Assembly: GCA_934699595.1 (NCBI GenBank)
Contig: CAKUWT010000002.1
Span: forward strand, 37,065-101,064
Source of the DNA: an uncultured Patescibacteria group bacterium
Lineage (GTDB): Bacteria > Patescibacteriota > Minisyncoccia > Phycocordibacterales > UBA918
DNA: 64,000 bases
Direction: 5' to 3'
Below the pieces are notes generated by a model that did no database searches, was not told the origin of the DNA, and saw only the letters and a list, made by a program, of their open reading frames with translations. This document shows positions 5,299-24,077 of the stretch, in pieces (position 1 is the first letter of the stretch; every line of letters starts with the position of its first letter). Both the position numbers and the translations under genes were made by a program.

Positions 5299-6240
5299 AT
5301 GTTAAAATGGATTGACATGGACTGGCAAACTTCATTGAAAGATTTTCAACAATATTTAGAAATTGAACGTGGTCGTAGTCAGGCGACGACTGAAAATTAT
5401 TTACGCTACTTGCGTAAGTATTTCCAGTTTGCCAAAATCAGTTCCCCGAGTGAGATTACTGAAGTTAGTGTTCGGGAGTGGCGGCTGCACTTAAACCGCT
5501 TACCAGGAACTAAAGTGGGTGGTCGTCAGGAACCGATGAAAAGACGAACTCAAAATTATTACTTGATAGCACTAAGAGCCTATTTAAAATTTTTACGAAT
5601 GCGCAATGTAGAGAGTTTGGCGCCAGAAAAAATCGAACTAGCCAAAGTGGCCTCGAGACAAATTGACATCATTACCGCTGCTGAGTTAGAGAGATTGTTG
5701 TTAGCTCCAGATCCGGCCACCCCGCAAGGCTTGCGTGATCGTGCTGTGCTACAGCTCCTCTTCTCGACGGGGCTTCGGGTATCTGAGTTGTGCTCTCTTA
5801 ACATTGACGATATTGATATGGAACGTGACGAGTTCTCGATTCGAGGTAAGGGAGAAAGGGTGCGGGTGGTGTTTTTGTCGGAGACTGCTAAGCGTATGAT
5901 TCGTGATTGGTTAGCGACGAGGGAAGATATTGAGGAGGCTCTTTTTATACAACTAGGAAAACGTAGCGCGGCCGATGGTAGTCGCCGGCTGCAGCCACGG
6001 GCAGTGCAGCGACTTTTGAAAAAGGCGGCAGTACTGGCTGGTATTACCCGTAAGGTGACACCACACACTATCCGTCACAGTTTCGCTACCGATTTGTTAA
6101 GAAACGGGGCCGACCTGCGAGCAGTTCAAAGCATGCTTGGACATGCTGACATCAGTACTACTCAGGTCTATACGCACGTGACTGATGCCCATTTACGAGA
6201 AGTTCATAAAAAATTTCATCACCGCAAAAATCAGGATTAG
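5299..6240 (+). CDS. Tyrosine site-specific recombinase, XerC/XerD family
   Basis: 313 aa with an N-terminal SAM-like domain and a C-terminal catalytic domain (RHSFAT..LLRNGADLRAVQSMLGHADISTTQVYTHV). Confidence 0.85.
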   Translation: MLKWIDMDWQTSLKDFQQYLEIERGRSQATTENYLRYLRKYFQFAKISSPSEITEVSVREWRLHLNRLPGTKVGGRQEPMKRRTQNYYLIALRAYLKFLRMRNVESLAPEKIELAKVASRQIDIITAAELERLLLAPDPATPQGLRDRAVLQLLFSTGLRVSELCSLNIDDIDMERDEFSIRGKGERVRVVFLSETAKRMIRDWLATREDIEEALFIQLGKRSAADGSRRLQPRAVQRLLKKAAVLAGITRKVTPHTIRHSFATDLLRNGADLRAVQSMLGHADISTTQVYTHVTDAHLREVHKKFHHRKNQD

Positions 6241-7853: not shown

Positions 7854-10268
7854 CTATAAATCATCGACCTCAAGCACAATCTCACCCCCCTTCTCTACTT
7901 GCCCGGCAATAATTTTGTTAGTCGCTGTATCCTCAATTTTTTCTGCAATCAAACGCTGTAAGGCACGTGCCCCAAAACGGTCGTCGTAACTGGCTGCAAT
8001 CAGAGTTTTAATAAACTCAGTACTCACGCGTAGTTTGTAGCCACGATCAGCCATCGACTTTTTAAGTTTATCAACCATTAGGTAAGCGATCTGAAAATAT
8101 TCGTCAGCATTCAAGGGTTCAAAAACCACCACATCGTCAAAGCGATTGATAAGCTCTCGTCGGAAGATACGGTTCTTGATCAGGTTGTCGACAACCGCAC
8201 TTTCAAGTGTGGGTGCGTCCATGCGGGCGGAGGTTGTATGAGCAATTAAATCCGCGGCCGCATTACTGGTTGCGATGATAATGGTGGTACGCAAATTGAC
8301 CCGCTCTCCGCGACCATCGGTGAAAAATCCCTCGTCAAGCATTTGTAGAAATAGATCATGGACGGACTGAGTAGCTTTTTCGAATTCATCAAACAGTAAA
8401 ACAGCATAAGGTTGCTGGCGAATTTTATCGGCCAAAGCTCCCGTCGCCCCTTTTTCACCAATCAGCTTTGCTAAACCGTCTGCCTGACTGTACTCCGACA
8501 TATCAAAACGAATCATGGCATTTTGATCTTTGAACAACACTCGCGATAGTGATTTGGCCGTTTCGGTTTTCCCTACCCCAGTTGGTCCCAGGAATAAGAA
8601 AGAGCCAATCGGTCGTTCAGTTTGACTCATTTGTAGACGAGCTCGGCGCAAGGCACGCGCGATACTGTTAATAGCGGCATCCTGCCCAATCACCTGGCAG
8701 TGCAGCTCGTCTTCCAGACCGAGCAATTGATCGCGTTCAGTATCGTCAATCGGTCCCATCGGTATGCCAGTTTTTTCACTAATATATGTATAGACAAAAT
8801 CTTCCTGCACCAAGTTAGTTTTTTGGCTCCTGACCACGCCGCTGATTTCAGCAAGAAAATCCAAAGCTCGGTCACTGAGGGTTTCCTGTTGTAGGCTGCG
8901 CTTACTTCCGGCCAGAATAGCCTCAAGAGCTGGGTAGGTAAAATAAACTCCCTGATAAGAAAGGTTCCTTGCGGCAGCTTCTAAAAGAGCAAGAACTTTT
9001 TCATCGCTGAGTTCCTCCACCAGGATTTGCTCAAAGCGCCGCACTACTCCACCGAGTGGGGAAATATGTCGATGGAAATTAGCGGGGGTGTCGGTGGCAA
9101 TAATATGTAAACCAGTCATGGCCAAATAATCATCAATCACAATTGGCAAACTCACTTGGTAACGAGCTGTCAAAGCCATCATGTCACTGAAGTTTTCAAT
9201 GATTATGGTGAGATTACCAGCTTCAGCCACCTGATCGAGAATGTCGTGAAAAGCAGCCTCGAGGTCAATCTGGTTTGGATAAGTTAGCACCAGCTTCTCT
9301 ATATCCAGAGGGATTAAGTGTTGTCCCGACAGAGCGTTGAGTGCACGTCCGGAACGAAGTCGCTGTTCAACCGCTAGCAAAATATCCATTTTACCTACCC
9401 CTTCATTACCTATGAGGAGGACATTACTGGCACGGCTATTAGCTAGGGCAACTTCAATTTTTTCAATCTCTGGCAAAAATTGCTTTTCAGCGGAAACTAA
9501 ATTAGCAAATGTGGCGTTAGCACGGAGAGGCTTAGAAAATTCTTCTAAGGCATAGGAATAACCGTAAACCAGTTCTCTTCCTAGGCCGCCGTGTCGTGAT
9601 AAATTATCTCGACTCCACCACCGTTCTCGCCGTAGCGATTCCTGGTGACCGCTGACCAACCAGCGAGCAGTTTTTAGAAAAGTAGCGGGAGTGACGCCTT
9701 CAGATTGAATAAAGTCACTAAAGCCAGTATCTTGCTTAAGGATAGTTTCAGCCAGGCTCCTTAGGGTGAAAGTTTTGGTGGGTAAAGGGATTTCAGTAGT
9801 TTGTAGACGGCGTCGTTCTGGCTGGTTTACCCAACTGTCAACCTTATCCAGATCAAGACCAGCTTGCCAAGCGATGCGTCTGCCCCAGAGAGATTCTAAA
9901 AATTGTCGAGTGAGGTCTCCTTGGTCGGGAATAAGAGTGTCGGCCACTGCAAAAGTAATCCCAGCCTGTGCTTTGTTGTGACTGGCAATAACTGAGTCTA
10001 GACCCCGAAAGTAGAAGCTGTTGCTGTAGGTGTAAACTAAGATTTGCTCTAACCATAAAGCGAAGAGGATCAGATTCAGTCCTAACCAGCGGGGATGATA
10101 CCAATCTGGATATATGGTTAGAGAAAGAATGAGGAAGATCAGTGAGAGGCAAAGTAGGTATAGCAAGGTTAGCCGCAGGCGACGTAGAAATGACCGTGTC
10201 GCTAAACGGTTTAGGATTACGAACGTGCGAAATTGGTTTAGAGTAGAGGTTAAATTTTTCTGATACAT
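7854..10268 (-). CDS. Clp/Hsp100-family AAA+ ATPase (ClpB/ClpC-like) with an N-terminal transmembrane region
   Basis: 804 aa with two AAA+ modules. NBD2 has a canonical Walker A (GPTGVGKT) and Walker B (LLFDEFE). NBD1 has GNEGVGKM and IIIENF. The N-terminal roughly 90 aa are strongly hydrophobic. Confidence 0.85.
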   Translation of the reverse strand: MYQKNLTSTLNQFRTFVILNRLATRSFLRRLRLTLLYLLCLSLIFLILSLTIYPDWYHPRWLGLNLILFALWLEQILVYTYSNSFYFRGLDSVIASHNKAQAGITFAVADTLIPDQGDLTRQFLESLWGRRIAWQAGLDLDKVDSWVNQPERRRLQTTEIPLPTKTFTLRSLAETILKQDTGFSDFIQSEGVTPATFLKTARWLVSGHQESLRRERWWSRDNLSRHGGLGRELVYGYSYALEEFSKPLRANATFANLVSAEKQFLPEIEKIEVALANSRASNVLLIGNEGVGKMDILLAVEQRLRSGRALNALSGQHLIPLDIEKLVLTYPNQIDLEAAFHDILDQVAEAGNLTIIIENFSDMMALTARYQVSLPIVIDDYLAMTGLHIIATDTPANFHRHISPLGGVVRRFEQILVEELSDEKVLALLEAAARNLSYQGVYFTYPALEAILAGSKRSLQQETLSDRALDFLAEISGVVRSQKTNLVQEDFVYTYISEKTGIPMGPIDDTERDQLLGLEDELHCQVIGQDAAINSIARALRRARLQMSQTERPIGSFLFLGPTGVGKTETAKSLSRVLFKDQNAMIRFDMSEYSQADGLAKLIGEKGATGALADKIRQQPYAVLLFDEFEKATQSVHDLFLQMLDEGFFTDGRGERVNLRTTIIIATSNAAADLIAHTTSARMDAPTLESAVVDNLIKNRIFRRELINRFDDVVVFEPLNADEYFQIAYLMVDKLKKSMADRGYKLRVSTEFIKTLIAASYDDRFGARALQRLIAEKIEDTATNKIIAGQVEKGGEIVLEVDDL

Positions 10269-12765: not shown

Positions 12766-14235
12766 CTAAGTCACCTTGTGATTTCGAGCAATCGCTTGCA
12801 GGGCTTTAGCTTCCTCGTCAGCTAACAGCTTTTTGCCAGCAGCGGCAAGCTCTTCCAGCTCATCATCAGGGAGTAAGACTAACTCTTGCACCCGTTTCTC
12901 CAGATAATCGGCGGTATTCTTCTGTGGATCACTCAAGACTTCTTCCAAAAGGCTGTTTAATAATAAACCAAGCTTTTTACCAGGTTTTTCGTTGGTAACA
13001 CTCATGATTTTGCTGCCATCAATTTTCAATAAAGCGACAGAAATAGGGTCTCGGCGGGCTTCATCCACCATCGCTTGGTATTTTCGTAAGCGAAATGGCA
13101 GCGCTTTCGGTCTACCGGTGCCGATACGGTCACAAATACGCAGTTTTAACAAGTCGTCGATGTTCTCCTCCCCTACCCGCACAATCGTACGACGCACTGC
13201 CGCCAAGGTAATTTCATCTGGATCTGAGAAAAACATATGCCAGCGCACCAAAGTCACTACTTTGTCACTAATTTCTTTAGGAATACGCAATGAAGCCAAG
13301 ATTTCCTTAGTCATCTTCGCCCCCACTACTTCGTGACCGAAGAAGGTGTAGTGTTTGTTTTTACCTCCCGTACGTCTGGTGGCCGGTTTACCAATGTCGT
13401 GGAATAGAGCGGCTAATTTGAGGGTGTAACTGTAGTTCTTGTCACTGGCGGCCTGCAGTGAGCGTAACAAGTGCTCATAAACATCGTATTTATGCACCCC
13501 GCCCTGCTCACAGCCGATAGTGGGCAGTAATTCTGGTACCACGTACTGCAGAAGACCAAATTTTTCCAATAGAATAATGCCATACATTGGTTTATCAGAA
13601 GCGATAATCTTAGAAAACTCACTACCGATCCGTTCTCGGGAGATTTGCTTAAGCTTAGCTGCTTGGTCGCAAATGCCGGCAATGGTGTCTGGCTCTATTA
13701 GGAAATCTAGTTGAGCTGCCAACCGTACCGCGCGGAGCATGCGGAGCGCGTCTTCAGCGAAACGTTCCCCAGGGTCACGAACAGCTCGTAAACGTCCCTC
13801 TCGTAGATCTCGCAGACCATTAAAGGGGTCAATAATCTGTAAATCAGTTACTCGAATAGCGATAGCGTTAACGGTAAAGTCACGCCTAGCCAAGTCTTCC
13901 TCTAAAGAGACCCCAAAAACAACAGAATCCGGCCGTCTGGCGTCACTGTAAGTGCCTTCTGCTCGATAGGGAGTTATTTCAATCACTTGGAGAGTGGGGT
14001 CTGGGTCCTCAGTTTTTACACCAACAGTACCGTAGTCGTTATTGCAAAAACTATCTGGAAAAATTGTCTGAATTTGCTCAGGAGTGGCGTTGGTGGTTAA
14101 ATCCCAGTCGTTTGGTTGGCGTTTGGTCAATAAATCGCGCACACAACCACCAATTAGGTAGGCGGTAAAACCAGCTTTTTCTAAATCATCGGCTAGGCTA
14201 TGAATGATCGCCGGGATATTTGTTTGAGAAACCAT
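12766..14235 (-). CDS. cca: CCA-adding tRNA nucleotidyltransferase, polymerase-beta head plus HD domain
   Basis: 489 aa with GGCVRDLLL..DWDL at the N-terminus and an HD motif (LFHDIGKP). Confidence 0.85.
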   Translation of the reverse strand: MVSQTNIPAIIHSLADDLEKAGFTAYLIGGCVRDLLTKRQPNDWDLTTNATPEQIQTIFPDSFCNNDYGTVGVKTEDPDPTLQVIEITPYRAEGTYSDARRPDSVVFGVSLEEDLARRDFTVNAIAIRVTDLQIIDPFNGLRDLREGRLRAVRDPGERFAEDALRMLRAVRLAAQLDFLIEPDTIAGICDQAAKLKQISRERIGSEFSKIIASDKPMYGIILLEKFGLLQYVVPELLPTIGCEQGGVHKYDVYEHLLRSLQAASDKNYSYTLKLAALFHDIGKPATRRTGGKNKHYTFFGHEVVGAKMTKEILASLRIPKEISDKVVTLVRWHMFFSDPDEITLAAVRRTIVRVGEENIDDLLKLRICDRIGTGRPKALPFRLRKYQAMVDEARRDPISVALLKIDGSKIMSVTNEKPGKKLGLLLNSLLEEVLSDPQKNTADYLEKRVQELVLLPDDELEELAAAGKKLLADEEAKALQAIARNHKVT

Positions 14236-14316
14236 AATCGACGATATTATAACAAATATTATTGCTTTTTCCCTATTTTAGACGTATGATGGCTGACGAA
14301 AGCGAATACGCTAACT

Positions 14317-14388
14317 GCACCCATGGTGAAATGGATATCACAACTGACTTCGGATCAGTCGTTCTGGGTTCGAGTCCTGGTGGGTGCA
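14317..14388 (+). tRNA. tRNA-Arg(TCG)
   Basis: Folded by hand. The acceptor is GCACCCA/TGGGTGC, the D stem GTGA/TCAC, and the anticodon stem ACTGA/TCAGT with loop CTTCGGA. The T arm is CTGGG-TTCGAGT-CCTGG. No CCA is encoded. Confidence 0.75.
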
Positions 14389-14440
14389 CAATCGTTACTT
14401 AATTTTATTACGTAACAAAACTTCCTAGAGATAATAAAAC

Positions 14441-14635
14441 ATTATTTGGGCAGAAACAGTGTAAAGACACTGTTTCTGAGACTAGTACCACCAGGGCATT
14501 TCTATTTTTATAGTCGGACTATCGTCCTTCTTAAAAATAAGTCAAGCCCGATTGAGATATTTCTAAGGCGACAGCCGAAAGAAATATCCAATTGGGGTAC
14601 TGAACCTGTAAGGTTCGAGTCCTGGTTGGGGTAAA
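14441..14635 (+). repeat. tRNA-associated modular repeat element, copy A, ending in a degenerate copy of the tRNA-Arg 3' half
   Basis: tttgggCAGAAACAGTG-taaaga-CACTGTTTCTG hairpin at 14451-14478. A GATATTT...AAATATC stem-loop at 14556-14588. The end is GGTTCGAGTCCTGGTTGGGG, compared with the tRNA's GGTTCGAGTCCTGGTGGGTGC. Confidence 0.6.
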
Positions 14636-14771
14636 AGCCATTTACCTGGTTCGACTATGGAGGAAGGTCACTTAGTAGATTTGAAATCTCTCAGACGAAC
14701 AAAATATCCACTAGAATGACCGAAGTGGGTGGCTGTGTCCAATTTTTAAAAAATCACTATACTAAAGTATT

Positions 14772-15146
14772 ATGAAACTATACATTATTCCTGGTTTAGG
14801 TGAAAGCCTTGATGATTATCAATGGTTGGTTCTGTCGGGTGAACAACGTGGTTACGAGGTCGAGTTTCTTCCTTGGCAATTACCGGGGAACCTTTTGACC
14901 GAAATTATCAACCGTCCTCTGGTGCCTGGCTCAACAGTTTTTGGCTTCTCCGTCGGGGCTTTGATAGCCTATAAGCTAACAACACCGATGTAAAAAGGTA
15001 TCTATGCATCAATGTCGGAGATCCTTGAGGGCGATATTGAGCCAGTTTTAGATGAGGCGGTAAAGATCTTTGAATTTAAAACAGTTCAAGACTTTCGCTA
15101 CTTAACATATGGTGTACCAAAAGCGACTGAGTGGGTGCAGTTTTAA
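14772..15146 (+). pseudogene. Decayed alpha/beta serine hydrolase paralog of 18726..19334, interrupted by an in-frame TAA
   Basis: The 73-aa ORF has a GFSVGA nucleophile elbow and ends at the TAA at 14991. The same frame continues with ...FEFKTVQDFRYLTY, resembling the C-terminus of the intact hydrolase (KLVTFQDRNHFLL). The total is still too short for the fold. Confidence 0.4.
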
Positions 15147-15400
15147 GGTGAATTAGAACCTAGTTCCCGAGTGCATCAATTAGGGTCAGTACAGATAGTT
15201 CCCCAAACTGGTCACGAGCTAACTCCCGCTTATCAGGAATTGATACTTAGCGAGCTCTAGCTCTAAAGCTGGTATCAGAACCTCTTCTTATTAACAACCT
15301 GCTACTCTTCCCCTCACCCAGAGCTGCCTAATACCCCTCCCCAAAAAATGAACACTGGTGACTATCTTTGTAATAAAGATATTGTTATACTAAGTTACGA

Positions 15401-16090
15401 ATGACCGTAAAAAAACCCTATAAACAAAAGCTATATCAGGAAGCGCTTACTTTGAGGCAGCGTGGCTTTACCTATACTCAGATTGCAGAAATCTGTGGTA
15501 TTTCACGTGGAACCGTCAGTAATTGGCTAAAAGACCACTCTTTTTCCCAGCGAGTAGCTTTAGATAATCAAAAAAGAGCTGTCAGGCAGAATAAGGAGCG
15601 TCTAAAACTAGTTAACAAAACTAGAGCTAATGAACGCCAACGACAGCTGGCTGAAATGGTTCGTCACGCCACTGTGGAGTTTAAGAATTATCAGTCCTCT
15701 CCCCTGTTTATGAGCGCTTTAGCGCTTTATGCCGGTCACGCTGATCATAAAGCAACTAATCAGGTGCGCTTTAGTAGCAATCAAGTCGAGCTTCATTTAA
15801 TCTTTAAACGGTTCCTGCTCAAATACGCTGGCGTTACCAACGAACGTTTACGTCTCGCTCTGCAAATACCAGAAACAGCTAACCAAGAACGGTGCCGAAA
15901 ATATTGGGCGCAGAAACTAGGACTAAAAGCTAATCAGTTCTACAAAATCCAGCTTATCCCTAGGGGTCACACCAGTAGACCGTTGCATTTTGGGACCGGA
16001 AACACTATAATCAATGATACTTTACTTCAAGCTAAGTTGCAGACCTGGGCAAAGCTCACTTTGCAGCAGCTGAGTAAAAAGAGTTCTTGA
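15401..16090 (+). CDS. Hypothetical protein with an N-terminal helix-turn-helix domain
   Basis: 229 aa. LRQRGFTYTQIAEICGISRGTVSNWLK resembles resolvase/terminase-small-subunit-type HTH. The C-terminal half is unassigned, with only a weak LAGLIDADG-like stretch (LYAGHADH). Confidence 0.45.
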   Translation: MTVKKPYKQKLYQEALTLRQRGFTYTQIAEICGISRGTVSNWLKDHSFSQRVALDNQKRAVRQNKERLKLVNKTRANERQRQLAEMVRHATVEFKNYQSSPLFMSALALYAGHADHKATNQVRFSSNQVELHLIFKRFLLKYAGVTNERLRLALQIPETANQERCRKYWAQKLGLKANQFYKIQLIPRGHTSRPLHFGTGNTIINDTLLQAKLQTWAKLTLQQLSKKSS

Positions 16091-16106
16091 TTAAGTTCAA
16101 TACATT

Positions 16107-16180
16107 GCGGCCATGGTTAAGTGGTATAACATGTCGTTGCCAACGATAAGTCGAGAGTTCGATTCTCTCTGGCCGCACCA
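16107..16180 (+). tRNA. tRNA-Gly(GCC) with genomically encoded CCA
   Basis: Hand fold. The acceptor is GCGGCCA/TGGCCGC, the D stem GTTA/TAAC, the anticodon loop TTGCCAA, and the T arm GAGAG-TTCGATT-CTCTC. The discriminator A is followed by CCA. Confidence 0.85.
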
Positions 16181-16231
16181 AAAGTGACCTAATCTTATTA
16201 CGTTAGGTATTCTCTATATTAAACAAACTTT

Positions 16232-16368
16232 ATTTGGGCAGAAACAGTCCGGGGGACTGTTTCTGAGAATCGAAGGGTTAGTCAGATATTTTAAGGTCTG
16301 ATAGGTGAACTAAAATATCGATAACCAGCACTGAACCCGTAGAGTCCGATTCCCTCTAGTCGCACCAA
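16232..16368 (+). repeat. tRNA-associated modular repeat element, copy B, ending in a degenerate copy of the tRNA-Gly(GCC) 3' half
   Basis: tttgggCAGAAACAGTC-cggggg-GACTGTTTCTG hairpin at 16239-16265. The 9-bp stem GATATTTTA...TAAAATATC covaries with copy A. The end is GAGTCCGATTCCCTCTAGTCGCACCA, compared with the tRNA's GAGTTCGATTCTCTCTGGCCGCACCA. Confidence 0.6.
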
Positions 16369-16768
16369 AGGGTAGTGTAATCCTGTTATAGTACACACTG
16401 TCTATTTATTGAAACTGGATGAATCTGTTGATCAAGGTCAGCCCCCACGTCGCTTACAGAGTATTAGTCATTAAATAGACAGGGTCCTCATAAACTCAGT
16501 ATTTGGACCCAGATCAGACCTATAGGCCTATAAGGGAAAAAGATAATAGACAAAAGTCGCCTCTGGGGACAAACCTGTGTATTTGTGGATAAGAGACAAT
16601 CGTCTTTTATGGATTATCTTATTTAGAGCCATATATTAAAAGACATAGTCAAAATATGGTCTTATTTAATGTTTCACGTGAAACAAGTTACACGAGAAAC
16701 AGTCTTTAGCTAGAACGATAACCAAGTATCATTTTAATTAGACCAGGCTGTGTGTTAAACTAGCCTCA

Positions 16769-17170
16769 GTGTCAAGGCTAAAAAATAAGCAAATTGGCAA
16801 TCTAGGAGAATCTGTTGTTGCAAATCACTTAGTGAGACATGGGTTCACTATTTTAGAACGAAATTACCTTAAAAAGTGGGGTGAAATTGACATTATTGCA
16901 GTCAAAAGCGATAAAGTGCATTTTATCGAAGTAAAAACTGTTTCATATGAAACAAAATCTCTATTAAAGTATGCTGTTACACATGAAACTTGGCGACCTG
17001 AAGAAATGGTGCATAAGCATAAACAAGAACGGTTTAAGCGAGTAATCGACACTTGGTTAAGCGCCACTAGTTATCAAGGAGATTGGCAAATTGATGTTAT
17101 CACCTTAAGAATTGTGCCACGTGAAACATACGCTGTTATAAAAGTCTTTGATAATTTAATCTTTGAGTGA
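16769..17170 (+). CDS. YraN/UPF0102-family putative endonuclease
   Basis: 133 aa with G..GE..A..HL...G..ILERNY....GEIDIIA....V.FIEVKT, the UPF0102 signature. Confidence 0.7.
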   Translation: MSRLKNKQIGNLGESVVANHLVRHGFTILERNYLKKWGEIDIIAVKSDKVHFIEVKTVSYETKSLLKYAVTHETWRPEEMVHKHKQERFKRVIDTWLSATSYQGDWQIDVITLRIVPRETYAVIKVFDNLIFE

Positions 17171-18117
17171 ACGCAGACATGTTACACGTGTAACTAAAAT
17201 GTCCGAATATTGAGATTTAGGACCAAAATTACGTTTTTATAAAAAACAAACATAAAATAAATGAGGACAGTCCTGCTGATAGTAGATAATTTTGTAATCT
17301 AGTTAAGAGCCAGTCATCTTTTGGGAGTAGAGGCGAGGGTTACACGTGTAACTGAATTCGCAGAAACGTAGGCTAGATTGAGCCGTCTTTGATCAGCACG
17401 CTAGAATAATGGACGTATTTATACCTGCTGGCACTACCTTCTTTAGGTAATTCTCAAAAAAAGAGAAGAAAAGGTTACCGACTGATTGGTCCAGGGCTGC
17501 CGGACTTACTGACTTGGTTAAAAAACTTCGAAATTCTTCTTGATAAACACTGCCTTGGTGCATTGGTTGAGATTACCGCTTAATTATAAGGTGATTTATG
17601 TAGAATTTACCGTTTTAGAAGTAAAAATGTTTCCCATGAAACGGCTTTTAAAAAAATAATACTTATAAATCGATCTTTGGGCAAAGACCTTAAGTCTTTG
17701 TTGGTACAACTTACTCGTTGGAATCAACTTTGGGTCATATTTTTCTAAAAAAGAGGATATAATACTTATTATACGCTGGAGTGCATCAGAAGTTTGGACT
17801 TAAATGCTATTCAGGTGTTACACGTGTAACTGGTTAGATTACAAAAATTCCAGAAACTAGTAGAATCGATATGAAATTTGGCAGAAACCGGTAAAAAACT
17901 GGCAATAACTTCTAATTATCTGTCATGGGGTTAGTTTCACGTGAAATATTTGTCTTGTGAGCTTCAGTTTAAATCTATGAGGGTTTTTGACTGGCGCAAA
18001 AGGTTAAGCAAATGGTGGAGGATTAACTGTTGTTGTATACATAGCGATATGTAATCGAACTGTGCGGTTTCAGCATGGATTGTCGATTTTTTACTTGCTA
18101 TTAAGTGGGTACTAGCC
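17171..18117. repeat. Roughly 950-bp noncoding stretch with no ORF of 60 aa or more, containing repeated 14-bp CACGTG-core palindromes and hairpin repeats
   Basis: GTTACACGTGTAAC occurs at 17181-17194, 17339-17352 and 17817-17830. GTTTCACGTGAAA(t) occurs at 17934-17946, and GTTTCACGTGAAAC lies upstream at 16671-16684. A tttgggCAAAGAC-cttaag-GTCTTTG hairpin sits near 17672-17700. Confidence 0.55.
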
Positions 18118-18390
18118 TGACTATAAAAATAGAAATGTCCTGGCGGTACTGTTCACAGAAACAGTCTCCCAGACTGTTTCTGCCCAGACAGAGTTGCTTC
18201 GCCTCTTAGCGTTAAATTGCTCACTAATATTCAGTAACCTAGATGTCGGGGAGCCGGGAATCGAACTCTACGAGTTCAGTATCCCAATTGGATATTTCCT
18301 TCGGCTGGCGCCTTAGAAATATCTCAATCGGGCTTCGATTCCTCAAGAATAGTCCCCCAGACTATTCTTGCCCAAACAACGTTAGGTTTT
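18118..18390 (-). repeat. tRNA-associated modular repeat element, copy C (minus orientation, split architecture), containing a copy of the tRNA-Pro 3' half
   Basis: On the minus strand, a tttgggCAAGAATAGTC-tgggg-GACTATTCTTG hairpin at 18345-18371 is followed by aatcgaagcccgattgagatatttctaagg and a tRNA-like end GTTCGATTCCCGGCTCCCCGACA at about 18245-18268. That end is identical to the tRNA-Pro 3' end. A second hairpin unit, CAGAAACAGTC-tgggag-GACTGTTTCTG with its agtaccgccaggacatttctatttttatag tail, lies at 18118-18185. Confidence 0.6.
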
Positions 18391-18436
18391 GTATCTGTAG
18401 TTATATGTTACTCACTAATATCCAGTAAGTCACTTG

Positions 18437-18507
18437 TCGGGGAGCCGGGAATCGAACCCGGGCCGCACGGTCCCAAACCGCGTACACTACCATTATGCTA
18501 CACCCCG
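18437..18507 (-). tRNA. tRNA-Pro(TGG)
   Basis: Hand fold of the minus strand. The acceptor is CGGGGTG/CTCCCCG with one T-T mismatch at 6:67. The anticodon loop is TTTGGGA and the T arm CCGGG-TTCGATT-CCCGG. No CCA is encoded. Confidence 0.7.
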
Positions 18508-18725
18508 AAATTGGCGTCGCTGTGCCAAAAATATATCACCTTTACGGTGAAAAAGCCAATCGGGACTGGAGAATAAGTAGAGTCAAAATTTAAGTTCAGT
18601 GCAGTTGCATAAGGTCTCTAGCAGATAAGTCAATAAATAGTGGTTCCAGCAGTCAATATTTAGTGAGTTGAATTAAGAAGTTTGTTATTAATCCCCAAAA
18701 TAGCTAAACTAACCAGACATAACAA

Positions 18726-19334
18726 ATGAAACAGGTATTTTTTATTCATGGCGGTAGCGCTTATTCCCGTTATGATGATTTCTTAGAAGCCTTAAAAACT
18801 AAGGAGTTGCGCTCAGTTACTGGAGAGTCCAGTGAGCGCTGGTCGGACAATTTGCGGCGAGATCTGGGTGGGCAGACGGAACTTTTTCAGCCCCGAATGC
18901 CTAATGCTGATAATGCGCAATATCAAGAGTGGCAAATTTGGTTTGAACGACATTTTTCTTATTTACTAGACGGAGTGATCTTGGTCGGCTGGTCTTTGGG
19001 AGGGATGTTCCTTGCTAAGTATTTGTTAGAGAATGATTTGCCGTTCCGTCCGAGCGCGTTGCTGCTCTTGGCGGCTCCTGCCGGAAGTTGTGCAAGCGAA
19101 GTTGGGGAAGATTGTGGCACTTTTCAATTTGATCCAGGCAGAATCGAGGAGTTGGCAACTAAAATGTCCAATATTCAGATTTGGCACTCGGAAGACGATT
19201 TTGTGGTACCTTACGCAGATGCTTTAGTCTATCAGGCGGCACTACCGCAGGCTAAACTGGTGACTTTCCAGGACCGAAACCACTTCTTGCTACCGCAGTT
19301 TCCAGAATTTATTGAAGCTATCCATAGTCTTTAA
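18726..19334 (+). CDS. Alpha/beta-fold serine hydrolase (YdeN/RBBP9-like)
   Basis: 202 aa with a GWSLGG nucleophile elbow and later Asp/His candidates (SEDDFVV, RNHF). Confidence 0.65.
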   Translation: MKQVFFIHGGSAYSRYDDFLEALKTKELRSVTGESSERWSDNLRRDLGGQTELFQPRMPNADNAQYQEWQIWFERHFSYLLDGVILVGWSLGGMFLAKYLLENDLPFRPSALLLLAAPAGSCASEVGEDCGTFQFDPGRIEELATKMSNIQIWHSEDDFVVPYADALVYQAALPQAKLVTFQDRNHFLLPQFPEFIEAIHSL

Positions 19335-19412
19335 GGTGTGCTCGGGTAACTTTTCCCGAAAAACAGCGTAAGAGTTCGGATTAACTAGCGTCTACGTATA
19401 TAATGGTTCCAT

Positions 19413-20018
19413 ATGAGAGAACAGCTGTCAGAACCCGGAAACCAGGAGAAAGACTTTCTAGAGGCCTTTCATCAGTACAACGATGCTCTTTTTAGGCACG
19501 CTTGGATGCGTATCAGTGATCGAGAGAAGGCGATTGACTTAGTGCATGACACCTTCACTAAGGTTTGGGGGTATATTCGTAACGGTAAGGAAGTAGAGCA
19601 GTACCGCCCTTTTCTTTATAAGGTCTTGAATAACCTTATTATTGATGAGTACCGGCGTAAGCGCGAAACCTCCTTAGATGCCCTCTTTGAGAAAGAGGGG
19701 GTAGATGAGGGAACTTTTCCTGAGTTATCAGAAAGTACTGCTGAAACCCTCGCGGCCACTATGGATGGGCAACAGGCCTTTGATTTGGTGGGAGAACTAC
19801 CAGATACTTACAAAGAAATTCTCATTTTACGGTTTGTTGATGGTTTGGGGCCAAAAGAGATCGGTGAGCTGGTGGAGGTGAGTGAAAACGTGGTCTCGGT
19901 GCGTTTGCATCGTGGTCTGAAGATGCTCCGAGAGAAGATTGAGTCTGAGAGTTTGGCGGCTGATGAGCGACGAGAGATCAAGAAAACCCGAGAAAAAAAT
20001 AAACATGCGAAGATTTAG
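19413..20018 (+). CDS. RNA polymerase sigma-70 factor, ECF subfamily
   Basis: 201 aa with a region-2 motif (FRHAWMRISDREKAIDLVHDTFTKVW) and region 4 (LILRFVDGLGPKEIGELVEVSENVVSVRLHRGLKMLR). Confidence 0.85.
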   Translation: MREQLSEPGNQEKDFLEAFHQYNDALFRHAWMRISDREKAIDLVHDTFTKVWGYIRNGKEVEQYRPFLYKVLNNLIIDEYRRKRETSLDALFEKEGVDEGTFPELSESTAETLAATMDGQQAFDLVGELPDTYKEILILRFVDGLGPKEIGELVEVSENVVSVRLHRGLKMLREKIESESLAADERREIKKTREKNKHAKI

Positions 20019-21342
20019 CGAACAATTTTATAAAAAAGCTCAGAGTGTTAAGTTGAGCATAGCGGAAAAGTCTGAACTAGAGAGACAGCTGCTTACTTAT
20101 ATTGAGTATCACCCGCTGGCGGCTACTAGTGTAGTAGCGGGACAGGCTGGGCAGCGAGTGGCTAGTCCGTGGTATCGCTACCTACTTGATTACCGAGCCG
20201 TTGGCGCTATGGCGGTGATGTTTTTAATGATTGGTATTCCTTTGTGGGCAGAAAGAACTTTGCCTGGTGATGTTTTGTACCCCGTTAAAGTTAAGGTTAA
20301 TGAGGAAGTCTGGAGTTCTCTAGCTAGAACACCTTACGAAAAGGTTGAGTGGGAGGGTGAGCGACTGGAACGACGGTTGTCTGAGGCCCGCAAGTTAGCT
20401 GATAGCGGACGTTTGACTCCTGAGTTGGAGGCAGAAGTGTCGGCTAATGTTTTAGCGCATGCTAAAAGTGCTGATCAAAGTTTGGCAAAGTTGCGGACTG
20501 AGGACGAGGCGAACGCTGATGCGGCTACGATGGCTTGGAATTCCAGTTTAGAAGCACAGGTGGCGATGTTAAGTTTGAGTAATGAGATTGAGGGAGAGTC
20601 TGACACCGGTATAGAGGCAAAGCCTCTGGTGGCCCTGGCGAGAACTTTGGGTGAGAGTCTTCCTGCAACCGATGTCACTTTAAAAGCAACTTATAACGAC
20701 CTGGTTGCGCAGCTAGACAAAGACTTTAAGAAGAATGAAACAGCCTTAGCAAAATTAAGGAAAGATCCGACCGTGGAAGCTGACTTTACCGCAATTGAGA
20801 AAAGTCTGAATGATCTACAGCAAATCGCTTCGACTATTTATGAGCAGTATTCAGAAATTGAGTCTGGACAGCAATCTGTAGATGATAAAGAGGCTCTTCT
20901 TAAAGAAAAACGTGACGCTCTACGTAAAATTCTTCGTGACAGCAAGAAGTTAAATATTTTCTTGACAGAGTTGGAAGTACGTAAAAAGATCACTATCGAC
21001 CAGGTTTTTCTGGATAATCTCGATACTAAAGCAGCGGTTAAAACTTTGCAGGCGGAGATTAGTAAGGATCTAGAAATTTTAAGAAAATGGTTAAGTGAGG
21101 AAAGTCGGTTGACAGCGGTAGAGAAGCAGACTCTGACCAATGATTTGGATCGGGCTGATCAGGCGATTTTTGTTGAAGATGTTAGTCTTGAGGAGTTAAA
21201 AAAGATAAGATCTGCCCTAGAGATAGAATTGAAACGAAAAGAAGAATTATCGCTAGGAGCGACTGGGGGAGAGGCGACTAACCAAGGGGCAGCAACCGGA
21301 ACGAAGTCTTTAGAATCTCCAAGTTGGATGTTGCCGAGATAA
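20005..21342 (+). CDS. Putative membrane-anchored anti-sigma factor-like protein with a large coiled-coil extracytoplasmic domain
   Basis: The ATG at 20005 overlaps the sigma stop codon, implying translational coupling. One TM helix (AVGAMAVMFLMIGIPLWA) is followed by a long K/E/L-rich helical region. The track's earlier start at 19939 is out of frame with the sigma gene. Confidence 0.45.
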   Translation: MRRFSEQFYKKAQSVKLSIAEKSELERQLLTYIEYHPLAATSVVAGQAGQRVASPWYRYLLDYRAVGAMAVMFLMIGIPLWAERTLPGDVLYPVKVKVNEEVWSSLARTPYEKVEWEGERLERRLSEARKLADSGRLTPELEAEVSANVLAHAKSADQSLAKLRTEDEANADAATMAWNSSLEAQVAMLSLSNEIEGESDTGIEAKPLVALARTLGESLPATDVTLKATYNDLVAQLDKDFKKNETALAKLRKDPTVEADFTAIEKSLNDLQQIASTIYEQYSEIESGQQSVDDKEALLKEKRDALRKILRDSKKLNIFLTELEVRKKITIDQVFLDNLDTKAAVKTLQAEISKDLEILRKWLSEESRLTAVEKQTLTNDLDRADQAIFVEDVSLEELKKIRSALEIELKRKEELSLGATGGEATNQGAATGTKSLESPSWMLPR

Positions 21343-21389
21343 TTTACAAAACTTGTAGAAAAAGCCTTTCCGAAACGGAAAGGCTTTTT

Positions 21390-22493
21390 CTACAGGTTTT
21401 GCTCTAGGAGACTGGTTAAGAATGGACTCATGATTTCATTAAAAATGTTTGCGCGGGTGGTGATGTTGCCGCTGATGTTAGTTTTGAGATTCGCGCCGGT
21501 TTCTTCGGTGATTGTGCGATCGATATGGCTTAAGGTAATGGCCCGCAAGCTCCCCACGCCCTCGGTTGCGTCGTTGCCACGAGTAGTAATAACACCGATG
21601 ACAGAATTATGACTGTTGGCTACCGGGCCGCCAGAAGCGCCGTGGTTGCCGAGTTCGCTTCCAGAAAGAGCGATAACATCAGCATAGCCGGAGCTAAAAG
21701 TGTATAGATTGGTAATGTTAGCGCTAGCAATACTAGGAATGAATAACCCCGTGCGCCCGTCGGTGAAAAGGCTGGTGGCCGGATAACCGGCTGCCCGGAC
21801 AGTGCTACCTTTGATAGAAGTTGGAAGCAGGTCAGTAGTAATAGCTAGAGCTGGGAAAGTATCGGGCAGAGGAGTTACTTCGTCAATATTGGCGGAAATA
21901 TAAAGAAGAGCGTAATCGCGCTCGCCAGTGCCGAGAGGAAGGGTGTCGTTGATCGCTGCAGCATGCTCTTGAATCCAGGCGGGTGAGATATACAGCAAAT
22001 CAGCTATATAATGTGCCACTGCCGGTGATCCGGTGCGCACCACGCAGGACGCCGAGTCTAGATAATCAGTATTTTTCAGCAGTAGAAACTGTGCTACATG
22101 AGCGTTGGTGAGAATAACTCCTTGGTTGCTGATGAAAAAGCCTGTTCCGGTAGTGGTGCGGAGGCTGTCTTTGGTAGTAATGGTGCAAAAAATATTTACT
22201 AAAGCCTCTAAGGGGTTGTTGGTGTAGGTGGGTTGGGTGCCAGTACTGCCGACAAGGTTAGCTTGTTGATAGCGAAGACTGTTTAGGAGGATATCAGGAA
22301 TGGGCAGGGTTTTGTTGGAGAGCGACTGGTTAATGAGAAGGCTGTCGCGATGAGGTGGAAATAAAGCGGTAAGACTGTTGGTGTCATTGAAATACTGCCA
22401 CCCCCAAAGGCTGCCCAAGAGTGCGGTCAGTACCAGTAAAACCTTTAAACTAGTTGACATAGTTGTGCTAATTGTAGCATGGGTGGAGGCCAT
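21390..22493 (-). CDS. Secreted or membrane-anchored trypsin-like (S1/chymotrypsin-fold) serine protease
   Basis: 367 aa with an N-terminal hydrophobic signal/anchor. His is in TNAHV and Ser in GNHGASGGPV, a GDSGGP-like motif. Confidence 0.6.
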   Translation of the reverse strand: MASTHATISTTMSTSLKVLLVLTALLGSLWGWQYFNDTNSLTALFPPHRDSLLINQSLSNKTLPIPDILLNSLRYQQANLVGSTGTQPTYTNNPLEALVNIFCTITTKDSLRTTTGTGFFISNQGVILTNAHVAQFLLLKNTDYLDSASCVVRTGSPAVAHYIADLLYISPAWIQEHAAAINDTLPLGTGERDYALLYISANIDEVTPLPDTFPALAITTDLLPTSIKGSTVRAAGYPATSLFTDGRTGLFIPSIASANITNLYTFSSGYADVIALSGSELGNHGASGGPVANSHNSVIGVITTRGNDATEGVGSLRAITLSHIDRTITEETGANLKTNISGNITTRANIFNEIMSPFLTSLLEQNL

Positions 22494-22569
22494 TGGTGCT
22501 GGCGATAGTGAGGCGGCTGTGCTAGAATGCAGGGAACTTTTTATAAAGTTGTGCGAAAAAATAGGATTT

Positions 22570-22640
22570 GCGGGTGTAGTTTAGTGGTAAAACGACTGCC
22601 TTCCAAGCAGTAGTCGGGAGTTCGATTCTTCTCACCCGCA
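22570..22640 (+). tRNA. tRNA-Gly(TCC)
   Basis: Hand fold. The acceptor is GCGGGTG/CACCCGC, the D stem GTTT/AAAC, and the anticodon stem ACTGC/GCAGT with loop CTTCCAA. The T arm is GGGAG-TTCGATT-CTTCT. Confidence 0.8.
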
Positions 22641-22770
22641 CGAGTACAAAAATGAGCGTCCCGTCAGGGCGCCATTTTTGTTCGTGCGGGTGAAGGGAGT
22701 CAACTGCTTGGCTTCCGGGAAGAATCGAAAGGCGGAGCCATGTCGCCTTGCGACAAGTGAGCCGGGGTCG

Positions 22771-22952
22771 AGAACACTTAGTAGATTTGGAGGCGTCAGC
22801 CGAACAAATATACTTAGTGATTCGTGACCGATTCGTATCGCCCTCACTCGCACTAGATGATTTACTAGATATTAAGTAAGTCATAAAACTTTAAATAATT
22901 AACCAAGCACTGTCTGGGGTACTGAGCCCATAAGCTTCGATTCTTCTCAAAC
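22771..22952 (+). repeat. tRNA-associated repeat element, copy D, ending in a degenerate copy of the tRNA-Gly(TCC) 3' half
   Basis: cacttagtagatttgg...cagccgaacaaatatac is also present at 14679-14725. Then ctGGGGTACTGAgcccataaGCTTCGATTCTTCTCAaac ends it, compared with the tRNA's GAGTTCGATTCTTCTCACCCGC. A 5'-like fragment tgcgggtgaaggg lies at about 22684. Confidence 0.5.
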
Positions 22953-22979
22953 AAACCTTCTTACATTAAGATAACCACT

Positions 22980-24077
22980 ATGAATATCATTACTAATCTA
23001 CAGAAACTCGTTGCTTTTCCTACCGAGACGGGGCGGAAGACGGAGACTTTGTCACTGTTTTCCTTTGTGCGGTCGGAGCTGGCAGATTTGCCACTACATT
23101 TTACTGAGCGCGAGTATCAGAATTTTCCTGCCTTACTCATCACTACTCGCGATACTAAGACGCCGAAGATCTGGCTCTACTGTCATGTTGACGTGGTGCC
23201 GGCAACGACCGAGCAATATCAAGCGATTGAACAGAATGGTCGGCTTTATGGCCGGGGAGTCTTTGATATGAAATTTGCTCTGGCATCTTACCTCAGCCTC
23301 TTTCGTGAGTTAGGCGAGAGTCTGACTGATTTTGATTTGGGAATCATGCTGGTCAGTGATGAGGAGGTGGGCGGCTTTAACGGAGCTAATCGGTTACAGC
23401 AAGAAGGTTTTTTGTCGAAGGTAATTATTATCCCGGACGGTGGCGATGATTTGCGCGTAGAAACCAAAGCTAAAGGCATATGGCATTTAACCATTCGAGC
23501 GGAGGGTAGGGGTGCGCATGGTTCGCGTCCGTGGGAGGGGGAGAACGCGATTGAGCAGCTGAGTGATTATTTGACCGCTTTACGTCAAGCAGTGTGTCAT
23601 CAAGATAAAACTGAAAAGTGGTGTCGTACTCTCAGTACAGGCATGATCACGGGTGGACAAGCGGTCAACCAGGTACCAGATTATGCTGAGGCAAAGATTG
23701 ATATCCGACTTATTTCTAATGAGGAGAAAACGGAAATTGAGCACATCTTTACCAGTTTGCAGGCAGAGTATCCGCGGGTGACGGTGGAGACTGATATGTT
23801 GGGGAGTTGTGTAAATACCGACATTAATAATCACTATTACCAATCATTCGTGGAAATTACAGAAAGTATTACTGGAGTGGAGCACGTGCCTGTTTGTAGC
23901 TATGGCGCTAGCGATGCCCGGTTTTTTGTATCTGATATGCCCGCGATTATCACTAGACCGACTGGTGGCGGTATGCATGGAGCGGAGGAGTGGCTCGATT
24001 TGGCTAGCTTTGCCAAATTCCATCAGATCATCATGGCGTTTGTACAGCAGAACGGACAGATTGATGTTGGTGATTAG
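22980..24077 (+). CDS. M20-family metallopeptidase (ArgE/DapE-like deacylase)
   Basis: 365 aa with LYCHVDVVPA, GRGVFDMK and SDEEVGG motifs. Confidence 0.8.
   Translation: MNIITNLQKLVAFPTETGRKTETLSLFSFVRSELADLPLHFTEREYQNFPALLITTRDTKTPKIWLYCHVDVVPATTEQYQAIEQNGRLYGRGVFDMKFALASYLSLFRELGESLTDFDLGIMLVSDEEVGGFNGANRLQQEGFLSKVIIIPDGGDDLRVETKAKGIWHLTIRAEGRGAHGSRPWEGENAIEQLSDYLTALRQAVCHQDKTEKWCRTLSTGMITGGQAVNQVPDYAEAKIDIRLISNEEKTEIEHIFTSLQAEYPRVTVETDMLGSCVNTDINNHYYQSFVEITESITGVEHVPVCSYGASDARFFVSDMPAIITRPTGGGMHGAEEWLDLASFAKFHQIIMAFVQQNGQIDVGD

Follow-up and report, generated by a model that had tools for sequence, protein, structure and literature searches.

Structured repeat units trailing tRNA genes in a Patescibacteria group bacterium and its relatives, with an architecture resembling that of RtT

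Two tandem units behind the tRNA-Pro gene

The window analyzed here is a stretch of 64,000 nucleotides from an uncultured Patescibacteria group bacterium (assembly GCA_934699595.1, contig CAKUWT010000002.1, positions 37,065 to 101,064 of the forward strand). It contains a tRNA-Pro(TGG) gene on the minus strand (18436..18507; ARAGORN; Rfam RF00005, 60.8 bits) that is trailed by non-coding repeat units ending in copies of the 3′ part of the tRNA. The gene does not encode the CCA, anchors the array, and has a promoter-like site upstream (18559->18530). A four-way alignment with two further units of the window, A and B, which lie behind tRNA-Arg and tRNA-Gly genes, showed that the region behind tRNA-Pro (copy C) is made of two tandem units, C1 (18435-18244) and C2 (18243-~18051), both colinear with A and B. 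The original prediction considered the modules of copy C to be split and reordered relative to copy A; the alignment gives instead two tandem units of complete format. The array also continues to ~18051, beyond the end previously placed at 18118.

The plan shared by the units comprises seven parts: the tRNA 3′ end, a small AU-rich trailer hairpin, a hairpin of type 1 or 2, an optional antisense/tail module, a long stem-loop, a 6-bp terminal hairpin with a GUA loop, and the copy of the tRNA 3′ part. Each C unit carries its own deletion, C1 being devoid of the agtacc..tatag insert (the fourth part, i.e., the antisense/tail module) and C2 of the 5′ half of the long stem-loop (the fifth part). Hairpins 1 and 2 are both 11-bp hairpins which, read from the sequence, differ at three positions per arm, all three being compensatory.

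On the minus strand, the sequence repeated at the end of C1 originates from 18435..18457, which spans G53 to position 74 of tRNA-Pro plus 1 nt of flank (sequence and repeat search). The C1 trailer hairpin CTTACT-ggatatt-AGTGAG (18411..18429, minus; sequence and RNAfold) corresponds to the conserved ttactNNatatta flank motif; in the alignment, A, B and C2 also fold a hairpin at this position, with a different sequence. It is followed by hairpin 2, CAAGAATAGTC-tggggg-GACTATTCTTG (18344..18370, minus; sequence and RNAfold), and by the module beginning aatcgaagcccgattgag (18340-18283, minus; sequence). A segment antisense to the T-loop, GGAATCGAA (18334..18342, minus), pairs with GATTCC of the terminal tRNA copy in the minimum free energy structure of RNAfold. 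RNAfold also predicted the long stem-loop CCCGATTG-a-GATATTTCT...GGAAATATC-CAATTGGG (18283..18332, minus) and the terminal hairpin GAACTC-GTA-GAGTTC (18263..18277, minus), within whose 3′ arm the tRNA copy begins. This copy, GTTCGATTCCCGGCTCCCCGACA (18244..18266, minus), reproduces exactly 23 nt of tRNA-Pro, from G53 to +1, and marks the end of C1.

Unit C2 opens with the trailer hairpin GTTACT-gaatatt-AGTGAGC (18220..18238, minus), a paralogue of that of C1 according to sequence and alignment. Hairpin 1, CAGAAACAGTC-tggga-GACTGTTTCTG (18156..18182, minus; sequence, repeat search and alignment), precedes the module AGTACCGCCAGGACATTTCTATTTTTATAG, i.e., agtaccgccagg... with its tttttatag tail (18121..18150, minus), which is 86% identical to copy A. 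By-eye comparison showed that ACCGCCAGGAC within this module is antisense to the 3′ strand of tRNA-Arg, GTCCTGGCGG, and not to tRNA-Pro. What remains of C2 (18051..18095, minus; alignment columns 217-265) is a long stem-loop reduced to its 3′ half, CTGAAACCGCACAG, with a decayed tRNA copy, GTTCGATTAC; in this terminal copy, the third of the array, the T-loop has decayed to GTTCGATT (18060-18053), which closes the unit.

Thus, the tRNA-Pro(TGG) gene, both hairpins, the shared modules, and the duplicate of the tRNA 3′ end that had been described at copy C are all present (sequence, ARAGORN and Rfam). The duplicate was said to be exact and to include about 10 nt of flank. Its exactness holds over 23 nt; the direct repeat is in reality 50 nt long and its 27-nt flank shows 7 differences. 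Also, the distance from the duplicate to hairpin 1 measures 61 nt instead of about 55. A dot-plot of A against C recovered two matches, 14544-14625 with 18254-18335 (82 nt at 89%, BLAST E=1e-25) and 14466-14521 with 18113-18168 (56 nt at 86%, BLAST E=5e-17). Only ~14 nt of the 82-nt match are tRNA-derived, and the similarity of A and C is far above chance.

The 50-nt direct repeat that bounds C1 contains 0/23 differences in its tRNA part vs. 7/27 in its flank (Fisher p=0.011), so that the terminal copy is younger, or better maintained, than its flank. Since the copy is perfect over its 23 nt in C1 and decayed in C2, the proposal of a stepwise insertion gains support, and C1 is the newer unit, inserted between tRNA-Pro and an older, eroded C2. 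Recombination among copies, the other process put forward, agrees with a similarity that changes from block to block. The hairpin block is 84% identical in A-B and B-C2, the long stem-loop block is 90% identical in A-C1 and ~50% identical in the remaining pairs, and the terminal hairpin block is 88% identical in B-C1. The same agreement is found in two related loci, L019 and L020, where the long stem-loop has been swapped: both were found via P0055 and share an identical CCA-enzyme sequence, which makes them probably conspecific, and their long stem-loops differ in otherwise identical units.

Units behind other tRNA genes of the window and of related genomes

Beyond the context of copy C, the units belong to a family that extends across the lineage, is constrained in structure and includes an internal antisense copy. 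Related loci (L010, L012, L014, L016, L017, L019, L020, L021) were fetched as syntenic loci via homologues of the neighboring CCA-adding enzyme (12766-14235), which also assign the window to Patescibacteria/Paceibacteria. Among nine Paceibacteria genomes, 19 of 27 tRNA loci presented sense and/or antisense copies of the 3′ part of the resident tRNA. The units, which are non-coding and 170-250 nt in length, are invariably located downstream of their tRNA and co-oriented with it, and the core covariance model gave no match away from tRNAs in 246 kb. Wherever 10 nt or more of the terminal sense copy survive, it corresponds to the resident tRNA. Among 15 such copies, 11 have their first base exactly at C56 of the T-loop, and the copy of C1 starts at G53; the copies stop 1-4 nt beyond the tRNA. 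They track the gene sequence beyond the discriminator (GCA-CAAA at the tRNA-Arg of L010), not the mature -CCA end. Behind the tRNA-Pro of L010, two further units follow, with exact copies of 20 and 19 nt.

A tandem arrangement was also observed in L016, where ~2.9 repeats of 126 nt lie at ~8930-9205 behind tRNA-Arg (9251-9323, minus). Each of them combines 16 nt antisense to the T-loop/T-stem of tRNA-Arg with a hairpin and a scaffold of a second type ending in GAGTCC. This type-2 scaffold, cacttagtagattt...gaacaaatata(c)ttagtgattcgtgacc, occurs in the window at 14666-14722 and 22775-22829, in L010 at ~8493-8545, and in L012, L014, L017 and L021. It too is followed by a copy, in many cases decayed, of the 3′ part of the tRNA, and can be chained directly behind a type-1 unit.

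Units were detected behind 4/4 tRNAs of the window, and the extension of the contig to the left of the window revealed no further tRNAs. Unit A (14390..14636, plus), behind tRNA-Arg(TCG) (14317-14389), is the fullest version, with a covariance model score of 82 bits; it comprises hairpin 1 (14451-14478), the antisense/tail module (14484-14513), the long stem-loop (14547-14596), the terminal hairpin (14602-14616), and the tRNA-Arg copy (14612-14633). Unit B (16181..16369, plus), behind tRNA-Gly(GCC) (16107-16180), presents hairpin 1 (16239-16265), GAGAATCGAA (16265-16274), a variant long stem-loop (16276-16326), the terminal hairpin (16333-16347), and a diverged tRNA-Gly copy (16344-16369). Behind tRNA-Gly(TCC) (22570-22641), the composite unit D (22642..22949, plus) is associated with a palindromic terminator extending over the tRNA 3′ end (22632-22693), an antisense segment GAAGAATCGAA (22719-22729), and a type-2 scaffold (22775-22829) whose copy is decayed (22830-22847). 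Its 3′ end is of type 1 and carries the copy TTCGATTCTTCTCA (22936-22949).

L008, from another assembly, was 100% identical. Compared with 14390-18185 of the window, the Logan contigs L007 and L009 of ERR7738460, from the same strain, break off within unit A and within unit C2, which indicates that the repeat family breaks assemblies at tRNA loci. In practice, the units interrupt short-read assemblies at these loci, and they can be mistaken for scars of attachment (att) sites or for CRISPR-like guides.

Fold, constraint and origin of the units

Most units possess an antisense copy of the T-loop/T-stem of the tRNA, ending in ...AATCGAA and sometimes reaching the acceptor strand; the ..AATCGAA motif was present in 10 antisense copies across the loci. 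The canonical unit is clearest behind the tRNA-Arg of L019 and L020, with a palindromic terminator, GTGCACCCG, a hairpin, GGGAGGGACTCGAA, the long stem-loop, GUACUG, GGUCC-UGUAA-GGACC, and then (C)GAGUCC. In the RNAfold predictions, a three-way junction is closed by base pairing between the antisense segment and the terminal copy. The closing helix of unit A is ~10 bp long (-87 kcal/mol, z=-8.0), and that of C1 is formed by GGAAUC:GAUUCC, GGAATCGAA pairing with the terminal copy (-70.1 kcal/mol, z=-6.7). The antisense segment can be the fossil of another tRNA, as in C2, where ACCGCCAGGAC stands beside tRNA-Pro and fits tRNA-Arg. Similarly, the Gly-TCC unit of L016 carries an antisense copy of a CTCACCC variant, the tRNA and the sense copy being CTCGCCC.

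Many relatives show, in addition, a palindrome resembling a terminator, with a 3′ arm antisense to the 3′ strand of the acceptor. Terminator-like hairpins that reach into the tRNA itself were observed in the window (22632-22693), in L010 (6030-6075), and behind the tRNA-Arg of L019 and L020. In these hairpins, the acceptor 3′ strand and its flank are matched by an antisense 3′ arm (complement of positions 63-66 to 80), so that a read-through transcript could fold the tRNA 3′ end into a terminator and not into the acceptor stem.

Covariation was assessed on an alignment of six type-1 cores, ~4 of them independent, with a three-helix structure, 500 column shuffles and slid controls. Paired cells amounted to 87%, vs. 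70% in the column shuffles, none of which (0/500) reached the observed value, and to at most 52% in the slid controls. Double-sided changes affected 20 of the 33 pairs. In the long stem-loop, 12/17 pairs had double-sided changes and 91% of cells were paired over the six units, while the terminal hairpin showed 4/6 covarying pairs and 94% of cells paired; helix 1, formed by the antisense segment and the copy, was paired at 74.5% across units. The long stem-loop contained 5 G-U pairs and 0 A-C pairs, which favors folding of the tRNA-sense strand. Also, the 200-nt trailer of tRNA-Gly(GCC) is 90% identical between L016 and L019, compared at the DNA level with 77% for the flanking CCA-enzyme gene and 72% for the helix-turn-helix (HTH) gene, an identity that points to constraint or to recent exchange. 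Terminator prediction gave nothing between the tRNA and units A, B or C of the window, and together with the promoter-like site before tRNA-Pro this makes co-transcription plausible there.

We tentatively read the units as structure-constrained tRNA trailer modules similar to RtT RNA (rttR), the RNA encoded behind tRNA-Tyr in E. coli, formed at the tRNA 3′ end by duplication, shuffled by recombination, and probably co-transcribed with the tRNA (probability of about 0.45). The comparison of units and loci shows that they arise at the tRNA 3′ end through an event that duplicates the segment from C56 to the end, new units adjoining the tRNA and older ones being displaced outward, where they decay. 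Blocks are exchanged between units of different tRNAs through recombination or gene conversion, which yields the mosaic. With no intervening terminator, the units of the window would be carried as a 3′ trailer on the tRNA transcript. The resulting RNA may fold with a closing helix made of tRNA T-loop/T-stem sequence and, by analogy with what is assumed for RtT, would probably serve as a processing or stability module.

Several observations weigh against this reading. No unit is found at tRNA-Pro in 4 of the 7 genomes where tRNA-Pro was seen, so that units are not essential for tRNA-Pro, and the terminal copy has in many cases been eroded or shortened to 6-12 nt, which means that a full tRNA mimic is not required. 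The closing helix of C1 is limited to 6 bp. The covariation, counted over six sequences of which about four are independent, is equally compatible with a folded site of single-stranded DNA (ssDNA), and the high identity between L016 and L019 could come from recent transfer instead of selection. Several relatives have a strong palindrome resembling an intrinsic terminator between tRNA and unit, limiting co-transcription in these genomes, and no internal promoter was evident in the units by promoter and terminator prediction. Finally, we infer the function at the RNA level.

Part of these data would also fit miniature, non-autonomous mobile DNA elements that home to the T-loop/3′ end of tRNAs and are mobilized in trans by an enzyme encoded elsewhere, the main alternative, which we regard as rather unlikely. 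Insertion would duplicate a target of ~19-23 bp (C56 to the tRNA end) or supply a replacement 3′ end, the fold would be an ssDNA recombination site as in integron attC or CTX-phage attP, and the antisense:sense helix would rebuild a double-stranded replica of the target. The direct repeats of the resident tRNA 3′ part that bound every unit, their fixed left edge at C56, and the position of the newest unit next to the tRNA would be expected from such elements. So would the near-identical blocks at Arg, Gly and Pro loci, antisense segments that may be fossils of another tRNA (C2, L016 Gly-TCC) combined with a terminal copy that is always resident, the nested or truncated copies of L016 Gly-GCC, the variable presence among relatives, and a covariation that suits folded ssDNA too. 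However, no gene for a transposase, integrase, HUH, Cas1 or reverse transcriptase (RT) was found within 10 kb of any unit in the nine genomes, nor a TnpB/Cas gene near any unit. The sole tyrosine recombinase is a syntenic XerC/D-like gene 8-13 kb away, the only Phage_integrase protein in Pfam scans of the neighboring open reading frames (5299-6240 in the window). Reading of the unit ends showed no terminal inverted repeats beyond the tRNA-derived ones, copies away from tRNAs are missing from the sequences searched with the core model, and the orthologous unit of L016/L019/L017 is vertically inherited and conserved above the coding genes. Also, gene conversion alone can explain the mosaicism, and we know of no documented enzyme class that makes 19-23-bp duplications at tRNA T-loops. 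A bolder version, in which the units are a previously unrecognized self-propagating miniature element of bacteria of the candidate phyla radiation (CPR), or the guide or recognition RNA of one, that homes to the universally conserved tRNA T-loop and rebuilds the tRNA 3′ end by a ~20-bp target duplication, seems unlikely to us. If true, the closing helix would replicate its own target, and the units would be target-adaptive, protein-less cassettes using tRNA genes as integrons use attI.

We consider it highly improbable that the units are natural guide RNAs, in which a scaffold is followed by a ~20-nt 3′ guide matching the tRNA gene after a GTT protospacer-adjacent or transposon-associated motif (PAM/TAM), with the polarity of Cas12/TnpB guides and the target logic of the tRNA-homing short CRISPR RNA (crRNA) of type V-K CRISPR-associated transposons (CAST). 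The copy does start at C56 right after GGTT in 11/15 cases and is 19-23 nt long if intact, a short covarying hairpin directly precedes it as in Cas12-type repeats, and in L010 a terminator follows each copy. Moreover, truncated repeat-spacer units directed at attachment sites in tRNAs have been described by Hsieh and Peters (bioRxiv 10.1101/2021.02.06.429022). Nevertheless, the window and ~180 kb of related loci contained no cas12k, tnsB/C, tniQ, tnpB or other RNA-guided effector gene, and Pfam detected no OrfB_IS605/Zn-ribbon (tnpB) domain in any open reading frame scanned near units. The supposed guide is base-paired to the internal antisense segment in the predicted, covarying structure, and the GGTT/AGTT motif precedes the copy in units A and C1 too, which would make them self-targeting. 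Guides are often shortened to 6-12 nt with the scaffold still conserved, and the units are found at 0-50 bp from their tRNA and not at the end of a transposon. Scars (attL/attR remnants) of kilobase-size integrative elements or prophages, inserted by a tyrosine integrase at tRNA 3′ ends and later deleted, are very unlikely as well. Elements that integrate into tRNA genes classically have as their identity block a direct repeat spanning the T-loop to the end of the tRNA; their sublocation classes were reportedly set out by Williams in 2002 in Nucleic Acids Research (NAR), and tandem accretion at tRNA genes is common. But all units share a complete architecture of 170-250 nt with covarying helices, instead of the random remnants expected from independent deletions. 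No unit has an integrase or phage gene next to it, and the phage, plasmid and viral collections gave no match to the units.

Rfam, at gathering score and at E<=5 in the window and the relatives, returned only tRNAs and spurious microRNA-type matches on a bidirectional terminator. Pattern scans for hairpin 1 in genome, metagenome and viral contig collections gave chance matches only, devoid of tRNAs (L001-L006), scans of viral contigs with type-1 and type-2 scaffold motifs gave no match, and neither did blastn of the units against phages and plasmids. In the literature, no description of this family of tRNA-trailing units was found. An origin from a primer-binding site or retroelement was excluded, because the sense copies follow the gene past the discriminator and not the mature -CCA end; no RT was found. 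A group I intron was rejected, as the tRNAs are intact and Rfam gave no intron family match; published group I introns of Patescibacteria are inserted at position 35/36, in the anticodon loop (PMC13011429). ARAGORN detected no tmRNA-like or tRNA-like gene. Also discarded as an effector was the conserved 229-aa HTH protein encoded upstream of tRNA-Gly(GCC), which has a LAGLIDADG-like C-terminal fold: it is syntenic with or without units and its catalytic motif is degenerate.

The remaining window is ordinary chromosome, with genes for PNPase, NusA, EF-G, ribosomal protein L2, type IV pilus proteins and others. Between the unit arrays of tRNA-Gly and tRNA-Pro (16670-17831), the palindrome TGTTACACGTGTAACT, with a CACGTG core, occurs at five sites (16670, 16975, 17180, 17338, 17816) around the UPF0102/YraN gene. 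Like CACGTG palindromes are found at the equivalent place in L012, L016 and L021, and they may be operator sites. A perfect palindrome with 26-bp arms (A-tract, stem, T-tract) at 21347-21401, between convergent genes for an anti-sigma-like protein and a trypsin-like protease, resembles a strong bidirectional terminator and is the source of the spurious microRNA-family matches; long perfect palindromic terminators are typical of this lineage.

Comparison with known systems

The units share features with several systems. Like the att duplications of integrative elements (tyrosine integrases, T-loop sublocation class), they show a direct repeat from the T-loop to just beyond the tRNA end and a tandem accretion in which the newest insert adjoins the tRNA. 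However, they measure 170-250 bp, are devoid of coding sequence and of a nearby integrase, and have a conserved fold instead of attP arms. The short or delocalized crRNA of type V-K CAST likewise contains a tRNA 3′ segment of ~17-20 nt, taken after the T-loop GGTT and preceded by a repeat-like hairpin. A tRNA 3′ part after a GTN/GGTT PAM, as in type V-K spacers, was found in 11/15 cases, and this position is the only feature shared. In contrast to these systems, the CPR loci have no Cas12k/Tns genes, CRISPR array or transposon ends, the segment is paired in the fold, and the host is a CPR bacterium and not a cyanobacterium.

With integron attC sites and with CTX-phage attP(+) and integrative mobile elements exploiting Xer (IMEX), the units have in common an imperfect hairpin that is conserved in structure over sequence, and polar arrays. 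The inverted core pair ..ATCGAAC / GTTCGAT.. resembles the R″/R′ boxes of attC and deviates at one position from the consensus RYYYAAC/GTTRRRY. Unlike integrons, the CPR loci have no IntI and their cassettes carry no cargo, and to our knowledge nothing shows Xer proteins acting at tRNA genes. The small RNAs of tRNA 3′ external transcribed spacers (3′ETS), such as 3′ETS-leuZ, are also non-coding RNAs from the trailer of a tRNA transcript, but they are short, single, unstructured sponges which contain no copy of the tRNA end and are not repeated.

The closest resemblance in architecture is with RtT RNA. Its repeats have been an oddity without explanation since the 1970s, reported at one tRNA locus in enterobacteria; Egan and Landy in 1978, Rossi et al. 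in 1981, and Bösl and Kersten in 1991 are said to have described the E. coli repeats and a processed RNA of 171 nt. In the region distal to E. coli tyrT/tyrV (NC_000913 1286200-1288000), we observed units of 178 bp behind the tRNA, each closed by a tRNA-Tyr copy that runs from position 58 through the CCA into the flank. The motif GGGGAAGGAU lies inside each of the three distal units, and the RF00391 consensus pairs it with AUCCUUCCCC of the tRNA-Tyr-derived end. One of these repeat units encodes rttR (PMC3318445), and rtT RNA has been tied to the processing of the tyrT transcript and possibly to the stringent response, its mode of action being unknown (10.1101/2024.07.17.603846). In both cases, tandem units of ~180 nt lie directly distal to a tRNA gene and are co-oriented with it, the last ~19-25 nt of the tRNA gene are repeated at the end of each unit, the copy starting within the T-loop (at 58 in E. 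coli and 56 in CPR bacteria), an internal antisense segment pairs with the tRNA-derived end and closes the structure, and no terminator separates the tRNA from the first unit (for the CPR units, in the window).

Nevertheless, the two groups present no sequence or covariance-model similarity, and their internal helices differ. With RF00391, neither the whole window searched at gathering score nor 14000-23500 searched at E<=5 gave a match, and none was obtained in the relatives, whereas the same search returned four matches in E. coli, around tyrT/tyrV; the CPR units are therefore not members of RF00391. They occur behind several tRNAs per genome (Arg, Gly-GCC, Gly-TCC, Pro), RtT only behind tRNA-Tyr; they are mosaic and diverged, unlike the near-identical repeats of E. 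coli; they contain no small open reading frame such as tpr; and their copies are devoid of the encoded CCA that those of E. coli contain. Thus, the CPR units constitute an independent family sharing the RtT architecture, a new and lineage-wide instance of a kind of tRNA-linked repeat that was already known but unexplained.

CPR/Patescibacteria have among the smallest bacterial genomes. Despite this, the clade has kept, behind the majority of tRNA genes examined, 0.2-0.6 kb of non-coding sequence under structural constraint. The diversity of its units offers comparative data on the fold, for which tRNA precursor processing, a stability module, a recombination site and a mobile cassette are candidate roles. 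The logic common to RtT and the CPR units, i.e., a location behind the tRNA, an antisense segment inside the unit and a copy from the T-loop to the 3′ end, is found here in an independent and more diverse family, which suggests a recurrent solution to some problem and not an accident.

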